From Clostridia bacterium (GTDB lineage: Bacteria; Bacillota; Clostridia; TANB77; CAG-465): 64,000 nucleotides of DNA. The position numbers were made by a program, and so were the translations under genes. Within the stretch, counting starts at the first letter, position 1. Every line of letters begins with the position of its first letter. Below are positions 372 to 59,830 of this stretch, piece by piece. The stretch is taken from contig JBJEXW010000003.1 in assembly GCA_051886195.1 (NCBI GenBank), forward strand, positions 23,844-87,843, read 5' to 3'. The notes beneath the pieces are model-generated. The model did no database searches. It saw only the letters and a program-made list of their open reading frames with translations, and was not told the origin of the DNA.

Positions 372-857
372 ATGGAAGAAGAAGTAACTATACAAGAAGG
401 AAATCCAGATATTGCAATGAAAGCAACTTTGGAATATGCTAAAACATTAATAGGAAATAAAACTAAAATAGCGTGGGTACAAAATATTGGACAGTTAGTT
501 CAATTACCAGATGGAGTTCCATATAGTGCTATAGACAAAGATGAGGAATATATGGCTAAAGGAAAGAAAAAAGCAGAAGCTATAGACGTAGAGATATTAT
601 TTACACATAAAGAACATAATACTTTAAAGAAAATATCTGATAATGATGAAGAAAACTATTTCTTTATAAAATATCCAGAAGTTACTGCAGAAATTAAAGA
701 CAAGCCATTAGTATTTTCATTTAAAGGTAATATTGCATTAGCAGCAAATGCAATTGAAGATGGAGAATTGTTAAAAGATACAATTAGAATATTTAAAAAA
801 AGTAAAGTTGTAGAAACAGATGGATATCCAGTTGAATCTGATTCAACTAAATATTAA
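372..857 (+). CDS. Phage major tail / tail tube protein (putative)
   Basis: 161 aa with an RBS (AGGAGG); first in the gene order tube, chaperones, tape measure. Confidence 0.4.
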   Translation: MEEEVTIQEGNPDIAMKATLEYAKTLIGNKTKIAWVQNIGQLVQLPDGVPYSAIDKDEEYMAKGKKKAEAIDVEILFTHKEHNTLKKISDNDEENYFFIKYPEVTAEIKDKPLVFSFKGNIALAANAIEDGELLKDTIRIFKKSKVVETDGYPVESDSTKY

Positions 858-2224: not shown

Positions 2225-2404
2225 ATTAAAATAGAAAAGAAAAGTAGGGCTGAATATTTTAGAAAAAGAAGAGAATTTTTAAGTGGATTTAATGTATTAA
2301 TTCCAAAAGAAAAATATGAAGCTATAAACGAAGAGTTAAAACGTCAAAATAAAACTAAAACCAAATGGCTTTTAGAAAAAATTGATGAAGAAACAAAAAA
2401 ATAG
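2225..2404 (+). CDS. Small ribbon-helix-helix-like regulator (cassette A)
   Basis: The ATG at 2201 lies inside the -10 box. RBS AGGAGG at 2215; the likely start is a non-canonical ATT/ATA in the same frame (uncertain). Motif FNVLIPKEKYEAI..WLLEKI is RHH-like. Confidence 0.35.
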   Translation: MKIEKKSRAEYFRKRREFLSGFNVLIPKEKYEAINEELKRQNKTKTKWLLEKIDEETKK

Positions 2405-2436
2405 AGTATTGTGACACTCGCCAAAGTAAACCACAA

Positions 2437-2530
2437 TACTCAACTCAATAAGAACTTTAGTCCTTATAAATCTATTGTATCACAGTAAGGGCTGAAGTTC
2501 AAGAGAAATTTTGAATGGAGGTCATTTTTT
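2437..2530 (+). ncRNA. Conserved ~90-nt leader element (copy A), candidate regulatory RNA
   Basis: About 95% identical to 8268..8356 while the flanking coding sequence has diverged; ends in the RBS GGAGG for the next ORF. Confidence 0.35.
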
Positions 2531-2967: not shown

Positions 2968-3741
2968 ATGAATGAAATAATAAAAATAAATAATGTAAGA
3001 GGATGTCAAACTGCAAATGGAATGGCACAATTAAATTTAGAGGATGTGGCAAGAGGATTGGGATTTACAAACGTAGCCACAAGTGGTCACGAAGTAGTTA
3101 GATGGGCAAGAGTAAGAAAATATTTAAATGATATAGGTTTTAATATAAAAAATGAAAAATTACCAGAATATATACCAGAGAATATATTTTATAAATTGTG
3201 CTTTAAAGCTAAAAATGAAGTGGCAAGAAGATTTCAAGACATGGTAACAGATGAGGTATTACCAAGTATAAGAAAACATGGAGCATATTTAACACCAGAT
3301 AAAGTAGAAGAAGTATTATTAAATCCAGATACAATAATAAATCTTGCAACAGAGTTGAAGAAAGAACGTTTATTAAACGAGCAAAACCAAAAACTAATAG
3401 GAGAATTAAAGCCAAAGGCAGATTATACAGATATGGTATTACAAAGTAAAGGAACAGTTACAATAAACGCAATAGCAAATGACTATGGTATGACAGCAAT
3501 AGCAATGAATAGGTTATTATATAGTTTAGGAGTGCAATATAAACAGGGAGAACAATGGTTATTATATGGTAAATATAGAAATTTTGGATATACACATAAT
3601 AAAACAATTCATTATCATCATAAGAACGGAACTCCTGCAACTAAATTAAATATGGAATGGACACAAAAGGGTAGACTATTTTTATATAGACTATTAAAAG
3701 AGCATGATATATTACCACTAATTGAAGAATTGAGTGCATAA
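2968..3741 (+). CDS. Phage antirepressor-like protein (Bro-N + KilA-C/ANT domains)
   Basis: N-terminus has a Bro-N pattern (..EVARRFQDMVTDEVLPSIRKHGAY); C-terminus is KilAC-like. Confidence 0.6.
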   Translation: MNEIIKINNVRGCQTANGMAQLNLEDVARGLGFTNVATSGHEVVRWARVRKYLNDIGFNIKNEKLPEYIPENIFYKLCFKAKNEVARRFQDMVTDEVLPSIRKHGAYLTPDKVEEVLLNPDTIINLATELKKERLLNEQNQKLIGELKPKADYTDMVLQSKGTVTINAIANDYGMTAIAMNRLLYSLGVQYKQGEQWLLYGKYRNFGYTHNKTIHYHHKNGTPATKLNMEWTQKGRLFLYRLLKEHDILPLIEELSA

Positions 3742-4110: not shown

Positions 4111-4314
4111 TTAGTATATACGATGGTAGTTATGTGTTTTATCAATATATGATAGAGCACTACCTAATGATGAAGCATTTATAAAGTTAGAATATTCTGA
4201 ATAACTAACATTATAATATTGATAAATTGCTCCATCTTTGAATTGAACTTCTAATGTATTATTATCCCAACCTACACTAGAAATTCTACTTGAATATACA
4301 GGTGTTCTGTTCAT
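4111..4314 (-). CDS. KTSC domain protein
   Basis: Motif SSRISSVGWDNNTLEVQFKDGAIYQYYNVSYSEYSNF matches the KTSC consensus (S..I.SVGYD...L.V.F..G..Y.Y..VP..Y..F). Confidence 0.55.
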   Translation of the reverse strand: MNRTPVYSSRISSVGWDNNTLEVQFKDGAIYQYYNVSYSEYSNFINASSLGSALSYIDKTHNYHRIY

Positions 4315-4364: not shown

Positions 4365-4455
4365 AACTATGCCCTGAGTAAGGCATTAAACTGCTCTTAT
4401 ATCCCTTAAAATTAAATTTATTCTAAAAGAGTTAAACTTAATAGTTTAGCTCTTT
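4365..4455 (+). repeat. ~90-nt two-hairpin boundary element, copy 1
   Basis: atgccctgagtaaggcat..aaactgctcttatatccctt..aagagttaaact-taat-agtttagctcttt; repeated at 9447..9527. Confidence 0.5.
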
Positions 4456-4471
4456 AATTATTTATTAGGAG

Positions 4472-7400
4472 GTGAAAAAGATGACAATTGAAGAAATAGA
4501 AATAATAGTAACTGCTAAAGTTGAAGAAGCATTACGAGAATTTAATAAGATGAAACCTCAACTAATGAAAGTAATGGAAGAAGTATCAAAAGAGATAAGC
4601 AAAGTAGATTTTAAGCAATTAAATAATACAGTAAAAGAAGGAACAAATGAAGTAAAGAAACAATTAAAATCTACATTTAATCCAGAAACTTTAGATCCTG
4701 GTTTTCTTAAAGCAACAGAAAAATTATATGCAGAAAGCATCAAAAAAACCCAAAAATATGTTAAAGACGTGCAAAATGAAATGTCAAAAGGAGACATGCA
4801 AGAAATAGGAAGACAAGTAGCACAAGCAACAGAGCAAGTTAATCAGGCTTTAAATAGTGAAAGTGTGCAAAAAGTAGTAAAAGACTCAGTAAAAGCTATA
4901 GAACAAATTAAGGATAAATTAGAAGAAGTAAAAGAAACAAACAAAGAGAATGAAATTAAATTAGATGTAAGTAATGAAGAAGCACTAGAGCAGATTACAC
5001 AATTAGAAAAAGAAATTGATTCGTTACAAAAGAAAATTACATCTAGGGAGATGAAATTGAGTGTAACAACGGATGCAATAGATAAAATACGATATGGAAA
5101 GCAAGATGAAATAAGAAAACAAAATCCTAGTTTAAGGGATATGCAAGTATCTAATAGAGCTGATTTTCAATTAAGTTCAGATACAGGATATACATCATTA
5201 GTAAATCAAGCGGATAAATTAAATACGGAAGTAACAAAGTATAATAGCTTACTTGAAAGTGCAAAAAGTAAATTAAGTGGATTAAAACAAAATACATCAC
5301 AAGTAGCGACAGAACAAGAAAAAACAAATACAAAAACAAGTAAATTACAAACAATATTCAATTCAGTAGGGGCTGGAATAAAATCTATGTTATCTGGACT
5401 AGGCAAGATGTTCCAAACAGGTGGTAAGGTAGTAAATATATTTAAAAAGTTTACTCCACATCTAGGCAATGGAATGAAAAGCTTATTAAAATATGCAGCT
5501 ACATTATTTAGCTTAAAGAGTGTATATAATACATTAAATTCAGCAGGTCAAGCTTGGTTATCTAGTCAAGATAGTGGTGCTAAACAATTAAGTGCAAATA
5601 TAGATTATATGAAATATGCACTAGGTAGTGCAGTGGCACCAGTAATACAATATGTAACTAATTTATTTTATCAACTATTAAAAGCTGTTCAAAGTGTAAT
5701 ATATGCCTTATTTAAGGTAAATATATTTGCTAAAGCGGGAGCAAGTGCTTATAATTCTATGGCAAATAATGCTAGTAAAGCAAGTAAAGCTAATAAAAGT
5801 TTAGCAAGTATACATAGTGAAATAAATAATGTATCATCAAGTTCTGGAGATAGTGGCAATAATGCATTAGTTCCAAGTATGGACTTTTCTAGTTTAGATA
5901 CACAACTTACACCATTAAAAAAAAGATTAGCTGATTTCTTTAGACCATTAGTTGAAAGTTGGAATACATATAGTCCACAATTAATATCAAAAGTACAAGA
6001 AACATTTAGTCAAATAGGATCATTATTAGAAAGCATAGGACAGAGCTTTATAAATATATTTGCAAATGGTACAGTATATACTATTTTAGAAAATATATTA
6101 AGTATTATAGGTAATATAGCAGAAGCTTTTGCAAATGCATGGAATTACAATGGTAATGGAGATATAATTGTACAAAATCTAGCAACAGCCTTAAATAATT
6201 TATTAATAGCAATAAATAATGTAGTACAAAGCTCAGGTTTTCAAGAATGGTTAAATAATTGTTCTGATAAATTTAGAGAGATAACAGAAAAAATTGCCGA
6301 AATAGATTGGCAACCATTAATTGATGCTTTAAGTAAAATAGGAGCATCAATAGGTACATTAGCTTTAGATATATTAAGTGGATTAGTAGATGTATTTAAA
6401 TGGTTTATTGAAAATCCAGATATATCAGGAATAATATTATCAATTGCAGCAGCATTATTACTTGTAGGTAGCGCAATAAATGCTTTTTCTGGTATTGCAG
6501 CAGTAATATCTTCTCTATCAAATTTAGCATCAGTAATTGGAACAACAATTTCAACTATTATGTCAGTTATAGGAGGAATATCTCTAATCATAGTTGGAAT
6601 AGTAACAGCTATTTCAAGTTTTGTAAGTATGCTTTCAGAAGGATTTAGCTGGCTTAAAGAGGTTATTATGCTAGTAGGAATTGCAATAGCAGCAGTAGGA
6701 GCAATTATTTTAGGAGCACCTGCACTAGTTGCAGGTGTTATAGCAGCAGTAGTTGCAGTTGTGGCTACATTAGTTGTTGCGGTTAAAGAACATTGGAATG
6801 AGATTAAGGAATTTATATCAAATGGCGTAGAAAAAGTTAAAGAAATATTTAATACAGTAATAGAATGGGTAAAAGAAAATTGGCAAGGATTATTATTACT
6901 AATAGTAAATCCATTTGTTGGAGCTTTTAAACTACTATATGATAATTGTGAAGGATTTAGAAATTTCATAGATAGTTTTGTAGAGAAAATTAAAAATTTC
7001 TTTAAAGATTTATGGAATAATATACAAAACATATTGTCGAATATAGGCAGTTTCTTTTCAAATATATTTAATAGTATAGGAAATGTAGTTTCGAATGTAT
7101 TTAATGGAATGTGGAATACAATAAGAAATGTAATTAATGCTATTTTAGGTGGAATAGAGTCTATGGCAAATGGTATAGTATGGGGAGTAAATAAAGTAAT
7201 AGACGTATTAAATAACCTTAATGTTCATATACCAGACTGGATACCAGTATTTGGCGGAAAAGACATAGGATTTCATATTAATCAAATGAGTACTGTTTCG
7301 TTACCACGACTTGCTAAAGGAAATGTAGCATGGAAGGAAACAGTAGGCATTTTTGGAGAGTATTCGGGAGCACAAAATGATCCTGAAATAACATCTCCAA

Positions 7401-7582
7401 GAAGTATAATGTATGAAACATTTGTAAAAGCTTTAAAAGAAAATAATAGCAATAATGATACTCCAATAAGTTTTAATTTGACGGCAATATTTGGAAATAA
7501 GAGAATAGGTCAAATTGCAATAGAAGATATTAAAGATATTAAGAGAGCAACAGGAGAAGATTTAGAGATTATATTTAGCTAA
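4472..7582 (+). CDS. Phage tail tape-measure protein
   Basis: 1036 aa; N-terminal coiled coil, central multi-TM Gly/Ala-rich segment, size and position typical of a TMP. Confidence 0.8.
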   Translation: MKKMTIEEIEIIVTAKVEEALREFNKMKPQLMKVMEEVSKEISKVDFKQLNNTVKEGTNEVKKQLKSTFNPETLDPGFLKATEKLYAESIKKTQKYVKDVQNEMSKGDMQEIGRQVAQATEQVNQALNSESVQKVVKDSVKAIEQIKDKLEEVKETNKENEIKLDVSNEEALEQITQLEKEIDSLQKKITSREMKLSVTTDAIDKIRYGKQDEIRKQNPSLRDMQVSNRADFQLSSDTGYTSLVNQADKLNTEVTKYNSLLESAKSKLSGLKQNTSQVATEQEKTNTKTSKLQTIFNSVGAGIKSMLSGLGKMFQTGGKVVNIFKKFTPHLGNGMKSLLKYAATLFSLKSVYNTLNSAGQAWLSSQDSGAKQLSANIDYMKYALGSAVAPVIQYVTNLFYQLLKAVQSVIYALFKVNIFAKAGASAYNSMANNASKASKANKSLASIHSEINNVSSSSGDSGNNALVPSMDFSSLDTQLTPLKKRLADFFRPLVESWNTYSPQLISKVQETFSQIGSLLESIGQSFINIFANGTVYTILENILSIIGNIAEAFANAWNYNGNGDIIVQNLATALNNLLIAINNVVQSSGFQEWLNNCSDKFREITEKIAEIDWQPLIDALSKIGASIGTLALDILSGLVDVFKWFIENPDISGIILSIAAALLLVGSAINAFSGIAAVISSLSNLASVIGTTISTIMSVIGGISLIIVGIVTAISSFVSMLSEGFSWLKEVIMLVGIAIAAVGAIILGAPALVAGVIAAVVAVVATLVVAVKEHWNEIKEFISNGVEKVKEIFNTVIEWVKENWQGLLLLIVNPFVGAFKLLYDNCEGFRNFIDSFVEKIKNFFKDLWNNIQNILSNIGSFFSNIFNSIGNVVSNVFNGMWNTIRNVINAILGGIESMANGIVWGVNKVIDVLNNLNVHIPDWIPVFGGKDIGFHINQMSTVSLPRLAKGNVAWKETVGIFGEYSGAQNDPEITSPRSIMYETFVKALKENNSNNDTPISFNLTAIFGNKRIGQIAIEDIKDIKRATGEDLEIIFS

Positions 7583-7892: not shown

Positions 7893-7896
7893 AAAA

Positions 7897-7925
7897 TAAG
7901 AAGAGTTAACAGAGGTTAGCTCTTT
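7897..7925 (+). terminator. Rho-independent terminator (aagagttaac..gttagctctt + T-run)
   Basis: Hairpin plus TTTTTT; the same hairpin sequence ends both cassettes. Confidence 0.5.
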
Positions 7926-7988
7926 TTTGTACCTTAAAAACATAAAAAACAGACAGAAAAATATTTTTAACTTTTTTATAAAAAACTC

Positions 7989-8031
7989 TTGATATATGTA
8001 TCCACAAATGATAATATATATGTGGATACAG
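7989..8031 (+). promoter_or_regulatory. Promoter (TTGATA, 17 nt, TAATAT) inside the palindromic operator TGTATCCACA-N13-TGTGGATACA
   Basis: 10/11 inverted repeat centred on the -10 box. Confidence 0.5.
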
Positions 8032-8037
8032 AAAGAG

Positions 8038-8223
8038 GTGAGTAAAATAGAAGTAAAAAAAATGGGTAGACCTACTAATGATCCTAAAAAATTAAATACT
8101 AGAATTAGATTATCAGAAAAAGATGTAGAAAAATTAAATTTTTGTTGCAGTAAGACAGGAAAATTAAAATCGGAAATAATAAGAGAAGGAATAGATAAGG
8201 TTTACACCGAATTAAATAAATAA
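8038..8223 (+). CDS. Ribbon-helix-helix regulator (cassette B)
   Basis: GTG start after the RBS GAAAGAGG; motif MGRPTNDPKKLNTRIRLSEKDVEKL is RHH-like. Confidence 0.45.
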   Translation: MSKIEVKKMGRPTNDPKKLNTRIRLSEKDVEKLNFCCSKTGKLKSEIIREGIDKVYTELNK

Positions 8224-8267
8224 AAAGAAGAAACCCGTTACATATCTTGGCGGATACACGAGTTTCT

Positions 8268-8356
8268 TACAAGTAAGAATTTTAGTCCTTACAAATCTAA
8301 TTGTATCACAGTAAGGGCTGAAGTTCAAGAGAAATTTTGAATGGAGGTCATTTTTT
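8268..8356 (+). ncRNA. Conserved leader element (copy B)
   Basis: About 95% identical to 2437..2530. Confidence 0.35.
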
Positions 8357-8521
8357 ATGGAAAGAAAGGTAGATAAAAATTGGAAATTAGAGGAACAAAA
8401 TTATGAATTATTAAGAAAATATGAAGATACACAAACAGTTACAGATATATTATTTGATTATTTACTTTCGATAAGAAAGGAATTAAAAAATGTAATTGAT
8501 ACCTCTGTGAAGGAGGATTAA
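8357..8521 (+). CDS. Small hypothetical protein (MERKV family, cassette B)
   Basis: 54 aa; paralogous to 2531..2794. Confidence 0.4.
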   Translation: MERKVDKNWKLEEQNYELLRKYEDTQTVTDILFDYLLSIRKELKNVIDTSVKED

Positions 8522-8523
8522 TT

Positions 8524-8691
8524 ATGGGAATAATTGAAGTAATGATTTTAATGATAATGTGTATCTTAAGAATGATAATAATAAACTTACCTACATTATT
8601 AATAATGATAGGTATACAAGCTGTTACATATTGGATAACAGGAATAAGTATATATAATAAAATAAAAGATTTTATGATAAGGGGGATGTAA
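8524..8691 (+). CDS. 55-aa hydrophobic membrane peptide (cassette B)
   Basis: MGIIEVMILMIMCILRMIIINLPTLLIMIGIQAVTYWITGISIYN.. Confidence 0.45.
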   Translation: MGIIEVMILMIMCILRMIIINLPTLLIMIGIQAVTYWITGISIYNKIKDFMIRGM

Positions 8692-8693
8692 TT

Positions 8694-9437
8694 ATGAATA
8701 ATAAATTAGAAATAGTAAAAAGTGAGAACTTCAATGGAATAGAATGTGATTTTTATAGTGATAAAAAAGATGTTTTTATGACAATAAATCAATTGGCTAA
8801 TTGTTTAAAATATAAAAATGGAAGAAAAGGAATTGAAAATCTAATTAGTAGAAATGAATATTTAAAAAATAGAGAATTTTCAGTTACCCTCGATATGAGG
8901 GCTACTGATGGTAAGCAATATAATACAAGGGTATTTACAGAAGATGGTATATATGAAGTAACAATGTTGGCAAGAACAGAAAAAGCAAGAGAGTTCAGAG
9001 ATTTTGTAAGGAAGGTCTTAAAATCTTTGAGAAAAGGAGAATCTAAATTAATAAAGACACCAGAACTACAAAGATTACAAATTGAAGCTAAATTAAATAA
9101 TTCAAGAGCTAGAGTGGCAAATGTATTATTAAAATTAGCAGATAAAACAAATATACCAGAATATAAACAAGTAATATTATCAAATGTAAGTGCTATATTA
9201 TCTAGAAATCAATTAATACCATTACCTAGTGCAGAAAAGAAAACATATAGCGCAAATGAAATAGGCGATATATTAGGAATAACAGGGAATATGGTAGGAA
9301 GACTTGCAAACGCAAATAATTTAAAAACAGATAAATATGGAAAGTTATTTTATGATAAATCTAAATATAGTAGCAAACAAGTCGAAACATTTAGATATTA
9401 TGAAAATATAATTCCAGAATTAAGAAAAATATTATAA
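8694..9437 (+). CDS. Phage antirepressor-like protein (Bro-N domain)
   Basis: FNGIECDFYSDKKDVFMTINQLANCL is a Bro-N signature. Confidence 0.6.
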   Translation: MNNKLEIVKSENFNGIECDFYSDKKDVFMTINQLANCLKYKNGRKGIENLISRNEYLKNREFSVTLDMRATDGKQYNTRVFTEDGIYEVTMLARTEKAREFRDFVRKVLKSLRKGESKLIKTPELQRLQIEAKLNNSRARVANVLLKLADKTNIPEYKQVILSNVSAILSRNQLIPLPSAEKKTYSANEIGDILGITGNMVGRLANANNLKTDKYGKLFYDKSKYSSKQVETFRYYENIIPELRKIL

Positions 9438-9446
9438 AAATAAAGG

Positions 9447-9527
9447 GACTATGTCCTGAGTAAGACATTAAACTGCTCTTATATCCCTTTAAAATAAAAT
9501 TTATAAGAAGAGTTAACGAAAGTTAGC
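9447..9527 (+). repeat. Two-hairpin boundary element, copy 2 (includes a terminator)
   Basis: About 90% identical to 4365..4455. Confidence 0.5.
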
Positions 9528-9623
9528 TCTTTTTGTATTATAAATACTAGTTATGTCATTGATGTTGAAAAAATTAAATAATAATATTATTATTTTGGAT
9601 ATATATTATTACTATATACTTAG

Positions 9624-9670
9624 TTGAAAATGTAAAAAAAATATGTTATAATTTGTCAACGAGGTTGACA
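9624..9670 (+). promoter_or_regulatory. Promoter (TTGAAA, 17 nt, TATAAT) followed by the palindrome TGTCAAC-gag-GTTGACA at +1
   Basis: Consensus boxes; a perfect 7-bp inverted repeat overlaps the transcription start and the RBS. Confidence 0.55.
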
Positions 9671-9674
9671 GCTA

Positions 9675-10982
9675 ATGAGTATTAGAAAATTAAAAATAAG
9701 TTCTAGGGCAAAGAAAATCATTCGTATTAAGAACCAAAGTAAAGAAAAGTTAAGAAAGGTTCTTAAGTATAGGAATAAAAAGAATAAAAAAATGTATGTA
9801 AAGTATTTTACTAAATATAAAAAAAGAAAACAAACAGAGTTAAGTAAAATATTTAGATTATTAGATGATAAAAAATTTTATAAAAAGCCAAGTATCCTTG
9901 TAAGTGGAACAGCTATTATACAAATACCTAGAGTTTTTTGTTTTTCTAAAAATGCTTATGAAACTATTGACATAATAAAAGAGGTAGCATATGCATGTAA
10001 GAATAATCTTGATATAATAATAGATCATTCTGAATGCCAGTATTTAGATTTGGGAGCATCTACAGTTATGGATGTTCTTATAATGGAATATAAAGCAAAA
10101 ATAAAGGCATTGCGTATGCATAAAGGTATAAGAGGTAAACTATCTAAAAGTCAAAAAGTAAATGATTTATTAAAGTTTAGCGGGATAGTAAAACATTTAG
10201 GATTAAATAATGAAATGTCGAATGAATTAGAATTGTTTCCATTAAAAAAGAATAAAGCTCCTGGTGTTTTAGGCGCTGATATAATTGAATATTATAAAAG
10301 GTGTTTAGCAACAAAAGGATTTGAATTAACTGAACAAGGAGAATTATATTTCGGAAATATACTAGGGGAAGTATTAACAAATTGTAAGGATCATGGCGGA
10401 GAAAATTCACAATGGTATGCAATGGGACATTATATTACTAAAGAAGGAAATATAAGCTTAATAATTTTTAATTTTGGACAAACAATTTTTGAGGGCTTAA
10501 ATAGTAAGGAAACATCGAAAGAAACCATAAAAGATTTAGATAATATTACTAATAGACATATAAAATTATTCAATTCAAAGTGGGACAAAGAAACGTTATG
10601 GACTTTATATGCATTACAAAGTGGTGTAAGCAGATTAAAATCAAAGGAAGATCCAACCAGAGGTACTGGGACAATAAAAATGATTGATGGATTCCAGACT
10701 CTTGGCAAGAAAATAGCAGAGGATGGCAAGAAATTAAATCCAATAATGAGTATTACATCTGGTAATGTTAATATAGTTTTTGATGGAACATATAATTTAA
10801 AAGAGGAACATGTAGATGGTGGAATTAGAAAAATAATTGCATTTAACAAGGAAAATGATTTGTATAAATTACCAGATCAGAATTATGTAAAAAATATAAA
10901 AAATTACTTTCCAGGAACAATAATAACTATGAATTTTTATATTGATAATAAGTATATAGATTTAATGAAAAAAGGAGAATAA
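9675..10982 (+). CDS. GHKL (HATPase_c_2, SpoIIAB/RsbW-type) kinase-ATPase with a Lys-rich N-terminus and a sensor-like middle region
   Basis: N-box LGEVLTNCKDHGG, G1-like IIFNFGQTI and G2-like TRGTGTIKMI resemble SpoIIAB EAVTNAIIHG / DEGVGI / ERSGMGFTIM. Confidence 0.5.
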   Translation: MSIRKLKISSRAKKIIRIKNQSKEKLRKVLKYRNKKNKKMYVKYFTKYKKRKQTELSKIFRLLDDKKFYKKPSILVSGTAIIQIPRVFCFSKNAYETIDIIKEVAYACKNNLDIIIDHSECQYLDLGASTVMDVLIMEYKAKIKALRMHKGIRGKLSKSQKVNDLLKFSGIVKHLGLNNEMSNELELFPLKKNKAPGVLGADIIEYYKRCLATKGFELTEQGELYFGNILGEVLTNCKDHGGENSQWYAMGHYITKEGNISLIIFNFGQTIFEGLNSKETSKETIKDLDNITNRHIKLFNSKWDKETLWTLYALQSGVSRLKSKEDPTRGTGTIKMIDGFQTLGKKIAEDGKKLNPIMSITSGNVNIVFDGTYNLKEEHVDGGIRKIIAFNKENDLYKLPDQNYVKNIKNYFPGTIITMNFYIDNKYIDLMKKGE

Positions 10983-12379: not shown

Positions 12380-14917
12380 ATGTACCCAGTAAGTGAAAAA
12401 TGGAAAGAAAGAATATATAGCGATGGTATTAAATCAAAAATAAAATTGTATATAAATGAAGAACTTATACAAGCTAAAATACTTAACTTAAAAATATCTC
12501 ATATTTTATATAATAATGATAGTAGTATATCATTAGGTACAACGACGTCACAATCATTAGAATTAAAGCTATTTAAAAAAGATTTACCAACAAATATTAA
12601 TACTATAAAAATAGAATATGGTATTTTAATAGATGATGAATACGATATGATACCATTAGGTGTTTATAATGTTGATAGTATAGACGATACTAATAATGAA
12701 ACAATTACTATAAAAGCCTCAGATAATATGATTAAATTTGAAGTTAACTATGACGGTAGTAATTTAAATTATCCGGCAACTATAAAAACCGTTTTATTAG
12801 ATATTTGTAACAAAGTAGGAGTAAAACTTGGTACTTCTACTTTTTTAAATGAAAATACAGAAATAGCTGTATGGGACAATACCGTAAGTGCTAGAAAGTA
12901 TTTGAGTTATATTGCAGAAAAAGCAGGATGTATAGCAGTAATAGGAAGAGATGGAAAATTATATTTAAAAAATTTATATGAGAGCAGTGAAATAATTCCA
13001 TTAAGATTATTTAAAAAGTATGAATGGGGAGAAAAGCATACTATAACAGGTGTAAAATTTCAAGATGGAATAAGAGCATATAATTTAGGAAATTCATCAG
13101 GAAATACATTATGGATTAGTTCAGAGAATATGTTTATTACATCATCAGCGGAAATAGAAGATATTTATGAAAAAATAAATGGTTTAGTAGCATATAGTTT
13201 CAATTCTGGCACCACAAGAATTAATCCAGCATTAGATGTAGGAGATAAAGTTGTTATAGATGGAAAAGAAGTAATATATCAATATGAAATGGAGTTAAAA
13301 GGTAGATTTTTAGGAACTGTTAATTCTAAATTATCAGATAAATCTAAAGAAGATACTACAGTAAAGAAAATTAGTAATGATACAAAAATTAGAAGAGTAC
13401 AAAGTGAAATTAATCAAATAGATGGTAAAATTACTCAATTAGTACAAGAAACAGAGGAAAACTCTGAAAAGATTTCCAAAAATGAGCAAGATATAGATAG
13501 TATAAATCAAACAGTGTCAAGTTTTACAAATTTTACTAAGACAATTGAAGGAAAAACAAAAATATTATTAGAAGATGCTTTAGAGACTAATATTTTAAAA
13601 TTGGTATTGTATGCAGAAAATACAGAAAATGGAATATATCCAAGCGAAGATTTATATCCATCTGAAGACTTATATCCTGAAAATGCTGGAAATGAATTTA
13701 CTATATTAGTTGAAAATGAGGATAAGACAGAAACAAAAGAGTTCTATTATAATTCTACATATCCTTTAGAAGAATATGATGGGACACGTGATCAACTTGT
13801 TATAGAATTTGATAAGGAAAAAGGATGCTGTAGTGTAAAAGTTTTAGCATATATTGAAGAAATAGCAGAAAATGTGTTCACAGTACTTGAAACACCAAAA
13901 GAGATAATATTAGAAGATAATTTACAATTTACTTTATTTAAAGGGAACAATTATATATCTGTAAAAGAATATCAAGATTGGAAAATTGAAGCTACATATA
14001 TATTCAATAACGAATTAAATGATTTGTATGCAACACAAGTATATATGAGTTCTGTTATAAAACAATTATCAGATGAGATATTACTTGAGGTTAGCAAAAA
14101 GGTCGGCGACGATGAGCTAATTGCTAAAATAAATCTTACACCAGAAACAATAAAAATTATCGCTTCTAAACTAGCCTTGGAAGGCTATACTACAATAAAT
14201 GGTGGTTTTTCAATAGATGAAGAAGGCAATGCGTCGATTGCAAATGGTGCTGTAATAATAAATAAAGATGGTATACGAATGGCCGATGGAACAAGTATTT
14301 TGGGTGGAAAAGGTTTATTATCTAATTTAACATTTGAAGGCATTGGAATTGTAAAGACTGCATCAGTAGGTTCATATTATCAAGTTGGATTTATGAGAAA
14401 TTCTAATAATGGAACAAATTTTAAATCACGAATAGATATTGATGCATATATTCCAGAAGGATTTGAAATTGAAAAAGCAGTAGTAACTATTTCACATTTT
14501 CCTATGGAAATAAATTATAATGGTACAAATTATGGAAAAGGATTTGCTAGAGGACTTAATATTTTTTATTCAAATACGCAAAGTAGAATGTTACAATTTA
14601 ATATTGGAAGTGAATACCAGGGAATAAATGATACAAGTTTAACTCAAATAGCAAATGGTTTAGAAAAAAATTGGACACCAAATATAGAAGAAAATAAAGT
14701 GGATAATATTGTAACTAAAGACATAAAAAGTAGTTTACAAAAGGGTATAAATAGAATAACAATACAAAGTGCAGATGATATACCATTCTATGATACTAGT
14801 TTAAATGAACAATATTTAGAAAAAGGATCAATAGAATATCTTTTAAAAACTGGTATGGTAAGTGCGTTTCTTGATATTTATGGTTTCATGAAACCAATAA
14901 ACGAGGAGGAAAAATAA
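12380..14917 (+). CDS. Phage tail-associated (Tal / tail endopeptidase-like) structural protein
   Basis: 845 aa; coiled-coil middle; YPSEDL tandem repeat; position after the Dit-like gene. Confidence 0.45.
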   Translation: MYPVSEKWKERIYSDGIKSKIKLYINEELIQAKILNLKISHILYNNDSSISLGTTTSQSLELKLFKKDLPTNINTIKIEYGILIDDEYDMIPLGVYNVDSIDDTNNETITIKASDNMIKFEVNYDGSNLNYPATIKTVLLDICNKVGVKLGTSTFLNENTEIAVWDNTVSARKYLSYIAEKAGCIAVIGRDGKLYLKNLYESSEIIPLRLFKKYEWGEKHTITGVKFQDGIRAYNLGNSSGNTLWISSENMFITSSAEIEDIYEKINGLVAYSFNSGTTRINPALDVGDKVVIDGKEVIYQYEMELKGRFLGTVNSKLSDKSKEDTTVKKISNDTKIRRVQSEINQIDGKITQLVQETEENSEKISKNEQDIDSINQTVSSFTNFTKTIEGKTKILLEDALETNILKLVLYAENTENGIYPSEDLYPSEDLYPENAGNEFTILVENEDKTETKEFYYNSTYPLEEYDGTRDQLVIEFDKEKGCCSVKVLAYIEEIAENVFTVLETPKEIILEDNLQFTLFKGNNYISVKEYQDWKIEATYIFNNELNDLYATQVYMSSVIKQLSDEILLEVSKKVGDDELIAKINLTPETIKIIASKLALEGYTTINGGFSIDEEGNASIANGAVIINKDGIRMADGTSILGGKGLLSNLTFEGIGIVKTASVGSYYQVGFMRNSNNGTNFKSRIDIDAYIPEGFEIEKAVVTISHFPMEINYNGTNYGKGFARGLNIFYSNTQSRMLQFNIGSEYQGINDTSLTQIANGLEKNWTPNIEENKVDNIVTKDIKSSLQKGINRITIQSADDIPFYDTSLNEQYLEKGSIEYLLKTGMVSAFLDIYGFMKPINEEEK

Positions 14918-22820: not shown

Positions 22821-22896
22821 TGGTGCTCCTGAGACGAATCGAACGTCCGACCAACGACTTAGGAGGTCGCTGCTCTATCCACTGAGCTACAGAAGC
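22821..22896 (-). tRNA. tRNA-Arg (anticodon CCT)
   Basis: Cloverleaf GCTTCTGTAGCTCAGTGGATAGAGCAGCGACCTCCTAAGTCG...CACCA; anticodon loop CTCCTAA. Confidence 0.85.
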
Positions 22897-23438: not shown

Positions 23439-23515
<77 letters not shown>

Positions 23516-43284: not shown

Positions 43285-43360
43285 TGGAGCTGAAACTCAG
43301 ATTCGAACTGAGGACCTACGGTTTACAAGACCGTTGCTCTACCAACTGAGCTATTCCAGC
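43285..43360 (-). tRNA. tRNA-Thr (anticodon TGT)
   Basis: GCTGGAATAGCTCAGTTGGTAGAGCAACGGTCTTGTAAACCG... Confidence 0.85.
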
Positions 43361-43375
43361 AAATATACTTTTTAA

Positions 43376-43451
43376 TGGTGACCCGTAGGAGAGTCGAACT
43401 CCTCACTCCGCCGTGAAAGGGCGATGTCTTAACCGATTGACCAACGGGCCC
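43376..43451 (-). tRNA. tRNA-Glu (anticodon TTC)
   Basis: GGGCCCGTTGGTCAATCGGTTAAGACATCGCCCTTTCACGGCG... Confidence 0.85.
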
Positions 43452-43457
43452 CATTTG

Positions 43458-43533
43458 TGGTGAGCCATCGCAGATTCGAACTGCGGACAACTTGATTAAA
43501 AGTCAAGTGCTCTGCCAACTGAGCTAATGGCCC
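43458..43533 (-). tRNA. tRNA-Lys (anticodon TTT)
   Basis: GGGCCATTAGCTCAGTTGGCAGAGCACTTGACTTTTAATCAAG... Confidence 0.85.
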
Positions 43534-45419: not shown

Positions 45420-45488
45420 AAAAATAGCATATTGAAAAATAAAGGTAAAAGTGATATAATGAACCCCAGTTGAGTAGGAGATTTATTT

Positions 45489-53381: not shown

Positions 53382-53710
53382 GTTTTAGTATCTCAGATGA
53401 TTGCTTGTTTATGCAAGAGGAAAGTCCGGACACTATAGAGCAGGGTGCTAGATAACGTCTAGTGGGAGTGATCCTAAGGAAAGTGCAACAGAAAATAACC
53501 GCTATATATAGTAAGGGTGAAAACGTGAGGTAAGAGCTCACGAATAATTATGGAGACATAATTATGGTGTAAACCCCACCTAGTGCAACACCAGAACTAA
53601 ACATTAAGGTTGCTCGCCAAGTTTTAAGTTGGTGGCTTGAAATGTGTAGCAATATACATTCTAGATAAATGATCATCTAATACAGAATCCGGCTTACGAG
53701 ATGCTAAAAC
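53382..53710 (+). ncRNA. rnpB: RNase P RNA, type B
   Basis: GAGGAAAGTCCGGAC; GGGTGAAAACGTGAGGTAAGAGCTCACG; ACAGAATCCGGCTTA; P1 stem GTTTTAGTATCTC/GAGATGCTAAAAC; promoter TGgTATAAT at 53367; terminator at 53716..53745. Confidence 0.85.
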
Positions 53711-53883
53711 ATATTAAAAAAGCTCTTTTTTGAGCTTTTTTTTATTCTTTATTTGACATAGTAAAACAAAAATGATAATATATTACACAACATAATATAT
53801 TTAACTTTATTTTTATTAAAAAGGAGGGGTATTTATGAGTAAAGATAATTATGAATTAAAATGTTGCATTTGCAAAAAGCCTA

Positions 53884-59673: not shown

Positions 59674-59731
59674 TAAATATTTATATATAAAACTATTGAA
59701 AATAAAAAGATTATATTGTATAATATTTCTA

Positions 59732-59812
59732 TGCCAAGCGATAGAGTACTGTGAACCTTGTCAGATCCGGAAGGAAGCAGCAATAAGCAATATACTCTAT
59801 GTGCTTGGTTTT
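59732..59812 (+). ncRNA. ffs: Signal recognition particle RNA (small, 4.5S-like)
   Basis: Conserved domain IV GTCAGATCCGGAAGGAAGCAGC; closing helix GCCAAGC/GCTTGG; promoter TGTATAAT at 59717; position upstream of dnaX as in Bacillus. Confidence 0.7.
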
Positions 59813-59830
59813 TTTATTAGGAGGTTTAAA

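Follow-up and report, generated by a model that had tools for sequence, protein, structure and literature searches.

The subject of this study is a non-coding leader that occurs twice in a 64,000-nucleotide (nt) stretch of DNA from a Clostridia bacterium (contig JBJEXW010000003.1 of GenBank assembly GCA_051886195.1; hereafter the window), the first ~22.8 kb of which is prophage-like. The tape-measure gene of this prophage sits between two homologous cassettes, A and B, and each of them has a promoter that carries operator-like repeats and, after it, a small repressor-like gene, the non-coding leader, an open reading frame (ORF) designated ORF-X (87 amino acids [aa] in A and 54 aa in B), a gene for a 55-aa protein with two transmembrane (TM) segments, and a gene for an antirepressor-like protein. 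Operon A on the plus strand comprises ORF-X (2531-2794), the 55-aa two-TM protein (2797-2964), and Ant, an antirepressor with Bro-N and KilAC domains (2968-3741), and operon B on the same strand comprises ORF-X (8357-8521), the 55-aa TM protein (8524-8691), and a Bro-N antirepressor-like protein (8694-9437). Ant of copy A matches PF03374 at 4.7e-31 in addition to Bro-N, its counterpart in copy B matches Bro-N at 1e-11, and PHROG anti-repressor families also match the antirepressor proteins of the cassettes. The reading that we favor, with moderate confidence, is that the leader acts as a countertranscript-driven attenuator that keeps the antirepressor operon of the prophage off.

The two copies of the leader are closest between 2474-2549 and 8300-8375, which are 99% identical over 76 nt, and pairwise alignment of the whole block (2449-2549 against 8275-8375) gives ~96% identity, the differences being three substitutions (C/T at 2455, T/C at 2467, and A/G at 2546) and one 1-nt insertion or deletion (indel) after 2473. 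Such a near-identical block cannot be the product of chance because 0.00 random matches are expected for a 27-nt probe taken from it, and the near-identical non-coding stretch that an earlier note on this DNA had described in both cassettes is therefore real. The limits given there, 2437-2530 and 8268-8356, hold for the core of the block but not for its first ~12 nt (2437-2448 and 8268-8274), which are not conserved, and the conservation does not end at the ATG codon, where these limits place its end, but extends 19 nt into the downstream ORF-X, through ATGGAAAGAAAGGTA. The description of the flanking genes as diverged fits the small repressor genes, whose products share 24% aa identity and are essentially unalignable, but not the promoter/UP region upstream of these genes (76% identity over 83 nt), the 3' third of ORF-X plus the next gene (78% over 290 nt), or the gene for the 55-aa membrane protein (85% nucleotide identity). 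Because these flanks are homologous at 76-85%, the leader does not stand as an island in unrelated DNA but is the part of two homologous cassettes that is conserved best. Its unusual conservation can be attributed to the overlap, within ~80 nt, of a -35 and a -10 hexamer, two helices, a Shine-Dalgarno (SD) sequence, a U-run, and a start region.

Relatives of the cassettes were found mainly through their proteins. The 55-aa protein forms 8 other clusters among 5.8 billion proteins, and these led to the contigs L001-L010; ORF-X has only 2 other protein clusters. A scan of genome contigs with the 21-mer at the start of ORF-X returned one true relative (L013, a metagenome-assembled genome of Clostridiaceae) and three chance matches, and the same scan of viral contigs returned no relative. 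The short contigs L015-L017 end before the leader. The leaders fall into type I (the two window copies, winA and winB, together with L003, L007-10, and L013), type II (L001 and L002), and type III (L004-6), with only ~60-69% identity of the leader core from one type to another. The type I leaders share 84-96% identity over the 100-nt core, compared with 79-93% for the membrane-protein gene, 46-83% for ORF-X, and 58-94% for the repressor region, in agreement with the functional element that the earlier note had proposed. The leader types do not track the neighboring genes, as exemplified by the winA ORF-X, which is 89% identical to that of L002 though their leader types differ, and the segments therefore appear to reassort. 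Because the cassette recurs in different phage contexts, namely before a tape-measure gene in L007-L010, ahead of genes for terminase or portal proteins in L002 and L004, and beside parB in L001, it can be regarded as a mobile moron. One further locus, L019, was found by Ant homology alone among 41 loci fetched, and it contains two tandem repressor-plus-leader units whose leader sequences are unrelated. In the 10 related metagenomic cassettes, five unrelated leader sequences keep the promoter, the terminator, and the folds described below. No match was obtained in an exact scan of viral contigs for the leader core or in a blastn search of 50,697 phage records and 72,556 plasmids with the cassette and the leader, and no confirmed relative of the membrane protein was found in the viral or genome contigs.

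A promoter on the minus strand, strong in the window copies, is one of the signals common to these leaders. In cassette A it lies at 2474-2502 (-35 at 2502-2497, -10 at 2479-2474) and reads TTGAAC-17-TGaTACAAT, and the minus-strand promoter of cassette B (8300-8328) is identical. The pattern TTGAAM-17-TGnTAYAAT is present exactly once, at the same place, in 8/8 leader versions of the membrane-protein-linked cassettes, although the promoter spacers of the three leader types are unrelated in sequence; in L007, one indel in the spacer is offset by a second, which preserves both the 17-nt spacing and the TG. Both L019 units have the hexamers at 17-18 nt, the second without the TG. In the whole window, the extended -10 pattern TTGAAM-N14-TGnTAYAAT occurs four times against 0.03 expected, two of the matches being the leader copies. 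The other two lie at 9624-9652 (+) and 45432-45460 (+), and the former, just upstream of an ORF at 9675-10982, may restart the transcription of tail genes after cassette B. An internal promoter, as had been suggested for the leader, is thus predicted, but for the minus strand; a promoter on the plus strand is not conserved among the leader versions, and that idea was dropped. By these in silico data, the leader of the target operon contains a promoter of its own for an antisense RNA, as in systems of the pT181 type.

The antisense small RNA predicted from this promoter in cassette A, sRNA-A, would span 2395-2467 on the minus strand (about 71-73 nt, with a predicted fold of -22.7 kcal/mol) and consist of a 5' hairpin (2448-2467) and a terminator hairpin (2404-2441) with ...ACUUUGGCGAG... 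in its loop, followed by UAUUUUUUU. The predicted sRNA-B of cassette B (8222-8293, minus strand, about 72 nt) likewise has a 5' hairpin and a terminator hairpin (8228-8268) with ...CCGCCAAG... in its loop, followed by CUUUUU. The hairpins after the stop codons of the repressor genes had already been reported, correctly, as real and as different in the two cassettes, but their predicted role as terminators of antisense RNAs had been missed: read on the minus strand, each is an intrinsic terminator with a stem and a U5-9 run, and on the plus strand no U-rich run follows this hairpin in any of the leaders compared. Repressor genes of any sequence all end in Lys codons and a stop codon followed by the hairpin, and the U5-9 run of the minus strand arises because Lys-Lys codons close every otherwise dissimilar repressor; in cassette A the gene ends in ...KK-TAG, and its Lys codons are the A-run of the antisense terminator. 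Across all versions, the RNAs are predicted to be 65-104 nt long (71-104 in types I-III, 65 and 71 in L019) and to combine a 5' hairpin with a long terminator hairpin, two or three hairpins in total, so that every version would have the short antisense RNA with an intrinsic terminator that is characteristic of the pT181 type. In every version the loop of the terminator hairpin contains UUGG or CUGG on one strand or the other, in agreement with the YUNR U-turn motif, which is the recognition-loop motif of antisense RNAs (PMC4485353). Several of these loops read UUGGCG/CGCCAA, given as the loop motif of ColIb-P9 in the citation of Asano et al. 1998 by PMC4374534. In pairing predictions, sRNA-A forms 20 contiguous base pairs (bp) with leader B at -25.6 kcal/mol, against -34.0 kcal/mol for the cognate pair of sRNA-B and leader B. 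Cross-control of the two cassettes is plausible because region I of the leader, defined below, is common to both and sRNA-A pairs with leader B, and either RNA could silence both cassettes of this prophage. Mutual titration of sRNA-A and sRNA-B through their UUGGCG/CGCCAA loops was also considered and was dropped, since 16% of shuffles reach the loop-loop energy.

On the plus strand, the leader can adopt two alternative folds. In leader A, region I (2452-2467), which the antisense RNA covers, and region III (2485-2500) form an antiterminator helix of 16 bp including three G-U pairs, with the -10 box of the antisense promoter in the loop; the three G-U pairs would be A-C mismatches on the other strand. 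The predicted attenuator hairpin (2490-2523, GGCU-GAA-GUUCAAGA/UUUUGAAU-GGA-GGUC) holds the SD sequence GGAGG (2517-2521) in its 3' arm, and six U residues (2525-2530) stand directly before the ATG at 2531. The corresponding elements of leader B are region I at 8277-8292, region III at 8311-8326, the attenuator hairpin at 8316-8349, U6 at 8351-8356, and the ATG at 8357. Pairing of regions I and III (I:III) and of region III with the SD-containing region IV (III:IV) are mutually exclusive because both use nucleotides 2490-2500. When the part covered by the antisense RNA is blocked in constrained folding, region III pairs with region IV; in the nascent leader, I:III forms in all three types and in the two L019 units. 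The SD hairpin formed upon blocking is found in all versions and ends 0-3 nt before a U5-7 run adjoining the ATG, except in the Clostridioides difficile phage CDMH1 described in the next paragraph, which has no U-run; U5-7 directly follows the hairpin in 7/7 of the non-CDMH1 leader versions despite their differing sequences. The constrained and nascent folds therefore support the exclusive alternative between a pre-emptor, I:III, and a terminator, III:IV with its U-run, that is known from the pT181 type. The earlier suggestion of an antitermination site stands in so far as the plus strand can form an antiterminator or a terminator, but the predicted trigger is an antisense RNA and not a protein factor. 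In the five type I leaders, 96% of cells are paired in I:III, and the variation falls in loops, in switches between G-C and G-U, or outside the hexamers and the SD sequence. Types II and III follow the same fold logic with other sequences and with hairpins that are much stronger as terminators (-19 to -20 kcal/mol). Fold z-scores range from -2.3 to -4.0.

Comparison with Rfam suggests a link between the predicted RNAs and a plasmid family. Among the families that score below threshold, ctRNA_pT181 (RF00242) ranks first at the predicted place and on the predicted strand: its model aligns in full length to 2389-2480 (-) at 26.7 bits and to 8214-8306 (-) at 26.2 bits in the window, and it scores 30.4 bits at 765-846 (-) of L019; no Rfam family reaches its gathering score anywhere in the cassettes. 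In CDMH1 (NC_024144, our L059), the minus strand of the spacer between gp19 and gp20 matches ctRNA_pT181 at 43.9 bits (E 1.5e-5), which points to an unannotated ctRNA_pT181-like RNA at 2671-2755 of our locus, about 12385-12469 of the record, on the minus strand. The loop of this RNA, CAAUCUUUGGUCGGGGAG, can be set against CAAACUUUGGUcaGGGaG of the ctRNA_pT181 consensus, and the loop ACUUUGG(C/U) is common to the predicted RNAs and the pT181 consensus. The gp19 gene codes for a homologue of the cassette A repressor (class A) and lies between an XkdN-like tail chaperone gene and the tape-measure gene, with the Bro-N gene gp20 next to it, and the leader of CDMH1 has the promoter, the terminator, and the SD hairpin. 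The same repressor homologue is carried by phiCDKH02. Each unit of L019 likewise has the antisense promoter, a terminated RNA of 65 or 71 nt, I:III, and an SD hairpin with U6-7 before the ATG. In L019 (392-912), the first attenuator precedes an ORF of 21 codons within which the second repressor has its promoter and operator, an arrangement that suggests a cascade of the tandem units. A scan for the composite signature found 14 sites in 717 kb, all of them expected leaders, compared with 2 matches in 20 shuffled windows. About 40 other IMG/VR Ant loci showed neither the composite signature nor a ctRNA match, L019 being the sole exception, so that ant genes do not carry the module as a rule.

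Upstream of the leaders, the sequence suggests how the repressor genes themselves are controlled. The predicted promoter of cassette A (plus strand; -35 TTGACT at 2174-2179, -10 TATAAT at 2197-2202) is overlapped by the direct repeats GTATGTnGATACA at 2183-2195 and 2203-2215, which are the presumed operator of the cassette A repressor, and the promoter region of cassette B (7989-8042, plus strand; -35 TTGATA at 7989-7994, -10 TAATAT at 8012-8017) is associated with the inverted repeat GTATCCACA / TGTGGATAC, the presumed operator of cassette B. Operator-like repeats overlap every repressor promoter at the same place, each cassette type having its own repeats. A block upstream of these promoters (2141-2180 and 7956-7995, ...ATATTTTTAACTTTTTTATAAAAAACTCTTGA...) is conserved despite the differing operators and repressors; it also occurs in L002, L003, L007, L019, and L059, where CDMH1 retains AAAAACTCTTGA, and it may be a shared module of UP element and -35 hexamer. 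The repressor-like gene of cassette A (2231-2404, plus strand, about 57 aa) belongs to class A, whose sole match is PHROG 3896, a family with no function assigned there, and that of cassette B (8047-8223, plus strand) matches PHROG 876, "transcriptional repressor," at 1e-13. The Pfam ribbon-helix-helix (RHH) matches of class B, RHH_1 and RHH_3, are below threshold, and its best PDB match, ORF56, has an E of 0.07. We regard an RHH fold as probable for class B and the class A repressor as putatively RHH-like; single-sequence AlphaFold models of both repressors were too weak to decide on the fold.

The start codons of these genes appear to be unusual. Gene A probably starts at ATA 2231 or ATT 2225 and gene B at ATA 8047, or else at ATG 8062. 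No in-frame ATG, GTG, or TTG follows the SD sequence in the repressor genes of winA, L007, L013, and CDMH1, and the conserved ...TAAAATAGAA... shows ATA where L004 shows ATG (TAAAATGGAA); at this position, CDMH1 has ATT at equal distance from the SD sequence and the first L019 unit has TTG. The small repressor genes thus seem to begin at non-canonical codons (2225-2233 and 8047-8049, and also in L003, L007, L013, and L059), which may keep repressor translation low. Current annotations, for example that of CDMH1 gp19, place the repressor start inside the promoter.

From these elements, the following mechanism can be proposed. Rightward transcripts from the autoregulated repressor promoter would cross the small RHH-like gene and enter the leader, in which a constitutive sigma-A promoter on the opposite strand would produce an antisense RNA of ~70 nt, ending at the hairpin and U-run that overlap the stop codon of the repressor gene. 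If the antisense RNA is absent, I:III would pair in the nascent transcript, leaving the SD sequence free and allowing transcription to continue into the genes for ORF-X, the membrane protein, and the antirepressor. If the antisense RNA occupies region I, an interaction that probably begins through the U-turn-type loops (UUGG/CUGG), region III would instead pair with the SD-containing region IV, and the resulting III:IV hairpin, with U6 directly before the ATG, should both terminate transcription and hide the SD sequence. The operon is accordingly predicted to be silent in the lysogen and in cells that already hold a phage of the same RNA type and to be expressed in a burst only upon entry into a naive cell, where repressor and RNA are both absent. 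By analogy with known immunity systems, we infer that the RNA and the repressor together would hold ant off in the lysogen and would do so in trans when a phage of the same type comes in.

Several observations weigh against attenuation by an antisense RNA, and the whole model is in silico. What can be read from the sequence are the signals, the alternative folds, and their conservation; that the RNA is made and brings about termination, and what this does for the phage, is inferred. The cassettes lie in the late (tail) operon, 5' of essential tail genes, where an efficient terminator would need a bypass for late transcripts. In the five type I leaders, the fold covariation that had been proposed as a check shows compatible folds without significant statistics: two-sided changes number none in I:III and one pair in the terminator, and shuffle controls are uninformative with five sequences, the type I variation being too sparse. 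The type I terminator hairpin is weak and broken by a 3x3 internal loop, at -10.9 kcal/mol in L007, where it is the only helix predicted in the segment, and -13.4 to -13.7 kcal/mol in the other type I segments with a second small hairpin included. The terminator of L002, conversely, is so stable that the unconstrained fold also forms it, and a switch there would therefore need to be kinetic, while L013 lacks three of the I:III pairs. The scores of 26-44 bits for the window, L019, and CDMH1 do not reach the ctRNA_pT181 gathering score of 56 bits, and the ctRNA matches in the window are not listed at E<=10 at the scale of the whole window, so that alone they are only suggestive. Finally, the SD hairpin of CDMH1 has no U-run, which argues for translational control in that phage. 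This last point leads to the alternative that the same antisense RNA acts solely on translation or mRNA stability, through the SD hairpin or a duplex cleaved by RNase III, with the U-run as an AT-rich spacer. The placement of the SD sequence within the 3' arm in all versions of the hairpin, the weakness of the type I hairpin as a terminator, and the precedent of pMV158 RNAII, which has the same gene layout and acts on translation (PMC4485353), give this view some weight; since U5-7 stands directly after the hairpin in all seven versions other than CDMH1, whatever their sequence, and other spacers between SD and ATG read in the window are A-rich, we consider it unlikely, although it deserves to be taken seriously.

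The remaining explanations do without an antisense attenuator altogether. If the leader functioned as a plus-strand RNA element only, as a site for RNase III or other processing or as a protein-binding hairpin (2452-2500), the minus-strand promoter match would be fortuitous; the 16-bp stem, whose G-U pairs make it specific to the plus strand, and the z-scores given above would agree with this, but the maintenance of -35, 17-nt spacing, TG, and -10 in three types with unrelated spacers, the minus-strand terminators at 65-104 nt, and the ctRNA_pT181 match of CDMH1 would all go unaccounted for, which makes it improbable. The inverted repeat 2452-2467 / 2485-2500 could alternatively be a DNA operator, bound by a protein of phage or host that regulates the antisense promoter or halts rightward transcription, given that its arms bracket this promoter, the 3' arm overlapping the -35 and the 5' arm spanning +1 to +16, and that each leader type has its own repeat. 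Because 3/16 of its positions pair as G-U only and are mismatches in DNA, its two arms stand 17-18 nt from each other, other types have the repeat at a different position relative to the promoter, and no candidate binding protein is tied to leader type, RHH and leader types reassorting freely, we give this idea very little credence. Equally little can be given to a type I toxin-antitoxin system composed of the 55-aa hydrophobic protein as the toxin and the antisense RNA as the antitoxin: a conserved two-TM protein does follow ORF-X in most cassettes and a small antisense RNA is predicted, but >330 nt separate the RNA (2395-2467) from the membrane-protein gene downstream of it (2797), whose mRNA it overlaps neither at the ends nor at the ribosome-binding site, and L019 and CDMH1 carry the RNA module without that gene. 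The toxin-antitoxin reading was rejected on this geometry, as the RNA does not overlap the toxin mRNA. The slightest chance of all is left to conservation as a by-product of recent recombination or gene conversion, or of a mosaic junction, without a function of its own, which the earlier note had named as the alternative to a functional element. The cassettes are clearly mosaic, as the ORF-X shared by winA and L002 across leader types indicates, but cassettes from four other samples carry the type I leader at 84-96% identity beside less conserved neighboring genes, and the two window copies (95%) are no more alike than winA and L003 (96%), with winA and L013 at 93%, so that recent recombination is not needed. 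The preference of the earlier note for a functional RNA or DNA element is upheld by the persistence of the type I leader across metagenomes and by the unrelated leaders that carry the same set of signals.

Countertranscript-driven attenuation, the mode of action that we favor for the leader, is established for pT181 (PMC3753616). The similarity to the copy-control RNAs of the Gram-positive plasmids pT181, pIP501, and pAMbeta1 lies in the antisense promoter inside the target leader and in an RNA of two stem-loops with an intrinsic terminator, and further in a pre-emptor and a terminator that exclude each other, the position of the terminator just before the start codon, and the loop-loop recognition, which is predicted here. 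Unlike in these systems, the target is a phage antirepressor operon and not a rep gene, and the module is coupled to an upstream cotranscribed repressor; compared with the pT181 plasmids, the type I terminator is weaker, the Rfam scores are 26-44 against 56 bits, and the features are predictions from sequence. The order of an RHH gene, an antisense RNA gene in the intergenic region, and the target gene is that of copG-rnaII-repB in pMV158 (PMC4485353). There, an autoregulated promoter stands first, and the short RNA encoded on the other strand ends at a rho-independent terminator. This gene order is matched exactly, and the layout recurs in all the cassettes, where the RHH identity is only probable; the predicted RNA is likewise complementary to a region just upstream of the initiation signals of the target. 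RNAII of pMV158, however, is 48 nt long with one hairpin, acts translationally, and has no U-turn loops, whereas the RNAs predicted here are 65-104 nt with two or three hairpins and YUNR-type loops, and the sense leader has a terminator-like hairpin with a U-run.

Among phage systems, the closest is the "ant moron" of P22, where ant lies within the late operon and is controlled by two repressors and an antisense RNA, sar (PMC2629481), which inhibits antirepressor synthesis (PMC5415839). Like immI of P22, the cassettes are self-contained late-operon morons with an antirepressor gene. In P22 this gene is under the cotranscribed small RHH repressor Arc, for which the cassettes have a putatively RHH-like counterpart, and an antisense RNA comes from the intergenic region of arc and ant (PMC2629481), as is predicted for the cassettes. 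The antirepressor target is embedded here among the major tail, tail chaperone, and tape-measure genes, but unlike in P22, ORF-X and the membrane-protein gene precede ant, which is the third gene, and the host is Gram-positive; no mnt-like second repressor was seen in the cassettes. The sar RNA of P22 overlaps the ribosome-binding site of ant and blocks its translation, whereas the RNA predicted here stops about 50 nt short of the SD sequence of ORF-X, with no antisense overlap of the ant ribosome-binding site, and should act by refolding; Rfam sar gave no match at E<=10. The immI operon of P1 and P7 is likewise under the control of an antisense RNA and has a small ORF, icd, ahead of ant, a place taken here by ORF-X. 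That RNA, c4, is processed from the same transcript and not countertranscribed, and it blocks the ribosome-binding site of icd with Rho-dependent polarity. In the literature searched, no paper linked ctRNA-type attenuators to phage antirepressors.

The surroundings of the cassettes contain further features of the prophage. The genes for the major tail protein (372-857), the tail chaperone (872-1336), and the tape measure (4472-7582) were assigned with PHROGs. A MazF-like growth-inhibitor gene (1693-2076, PHROG 1936) with a 94-aa ORF (1393-1677) just upstream looks like a toxin-antitoxin moron between the tail chaperone gene and cassette A, and a KTSC-domain gene (4111-4314, minus strand) lies between cassette A and the tape-measure gene. 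A second non-coding repeat of 54 nt, 91% identical between 4366-4419 and 9448-9501, occupies the 3' end of both cassettes and holds a small hairpin, ATGCCCTGAGTAAGGCAT; it was not found in 17 related loci. Terminator-like hairpins near the cassette ends lie at 4426-4455, 7896-7927, and 9503-9534. The prophage-like region reaches to a tRNA gene (22824-22896), which likely marks the prophage end and is the first of the host RNA genes (tRNAs, RNase P RNA, and signal recognition particle RNA), the others being at 23439-23512, 43288-43533, 53385-53711, and 59730-59815.

Antirepressors decide prophage induction and the success of superinfecting phages, and how Gram-positive phages silence them is, to our knowledge, little understood. 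The parts and the logic of the switch proposed here are all known already from plasmids and P22. A broader proposal, which we put forward tentatively as a possibility and which appears doubtful at present, is that Clostridia phages recruited plasmid-type ctRNA attenuators, possibly true relatives of that of pT181, as the RNA half of a two-key immunity system of antirepressor morons; at least five leader/sRNA types and the repressor/operator types would reassort freely, and each combination would define one immunity specificity, much as ctRNAs define plasmid incompatibility groups. The composite signature, which was specific in our scan, can be used to find such switches in metagenomes, and the gp19-gp20 intergenic region of the C. 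difficile phage CDMH1 offers itself as a culturable test system. If the proposed mechanism is true, phages would have turned a plasmid copy-control device, composed of a repressor and a countertranscript attenuator, into an immunity switch whose RNA and protein specificity modules can be exchanged.

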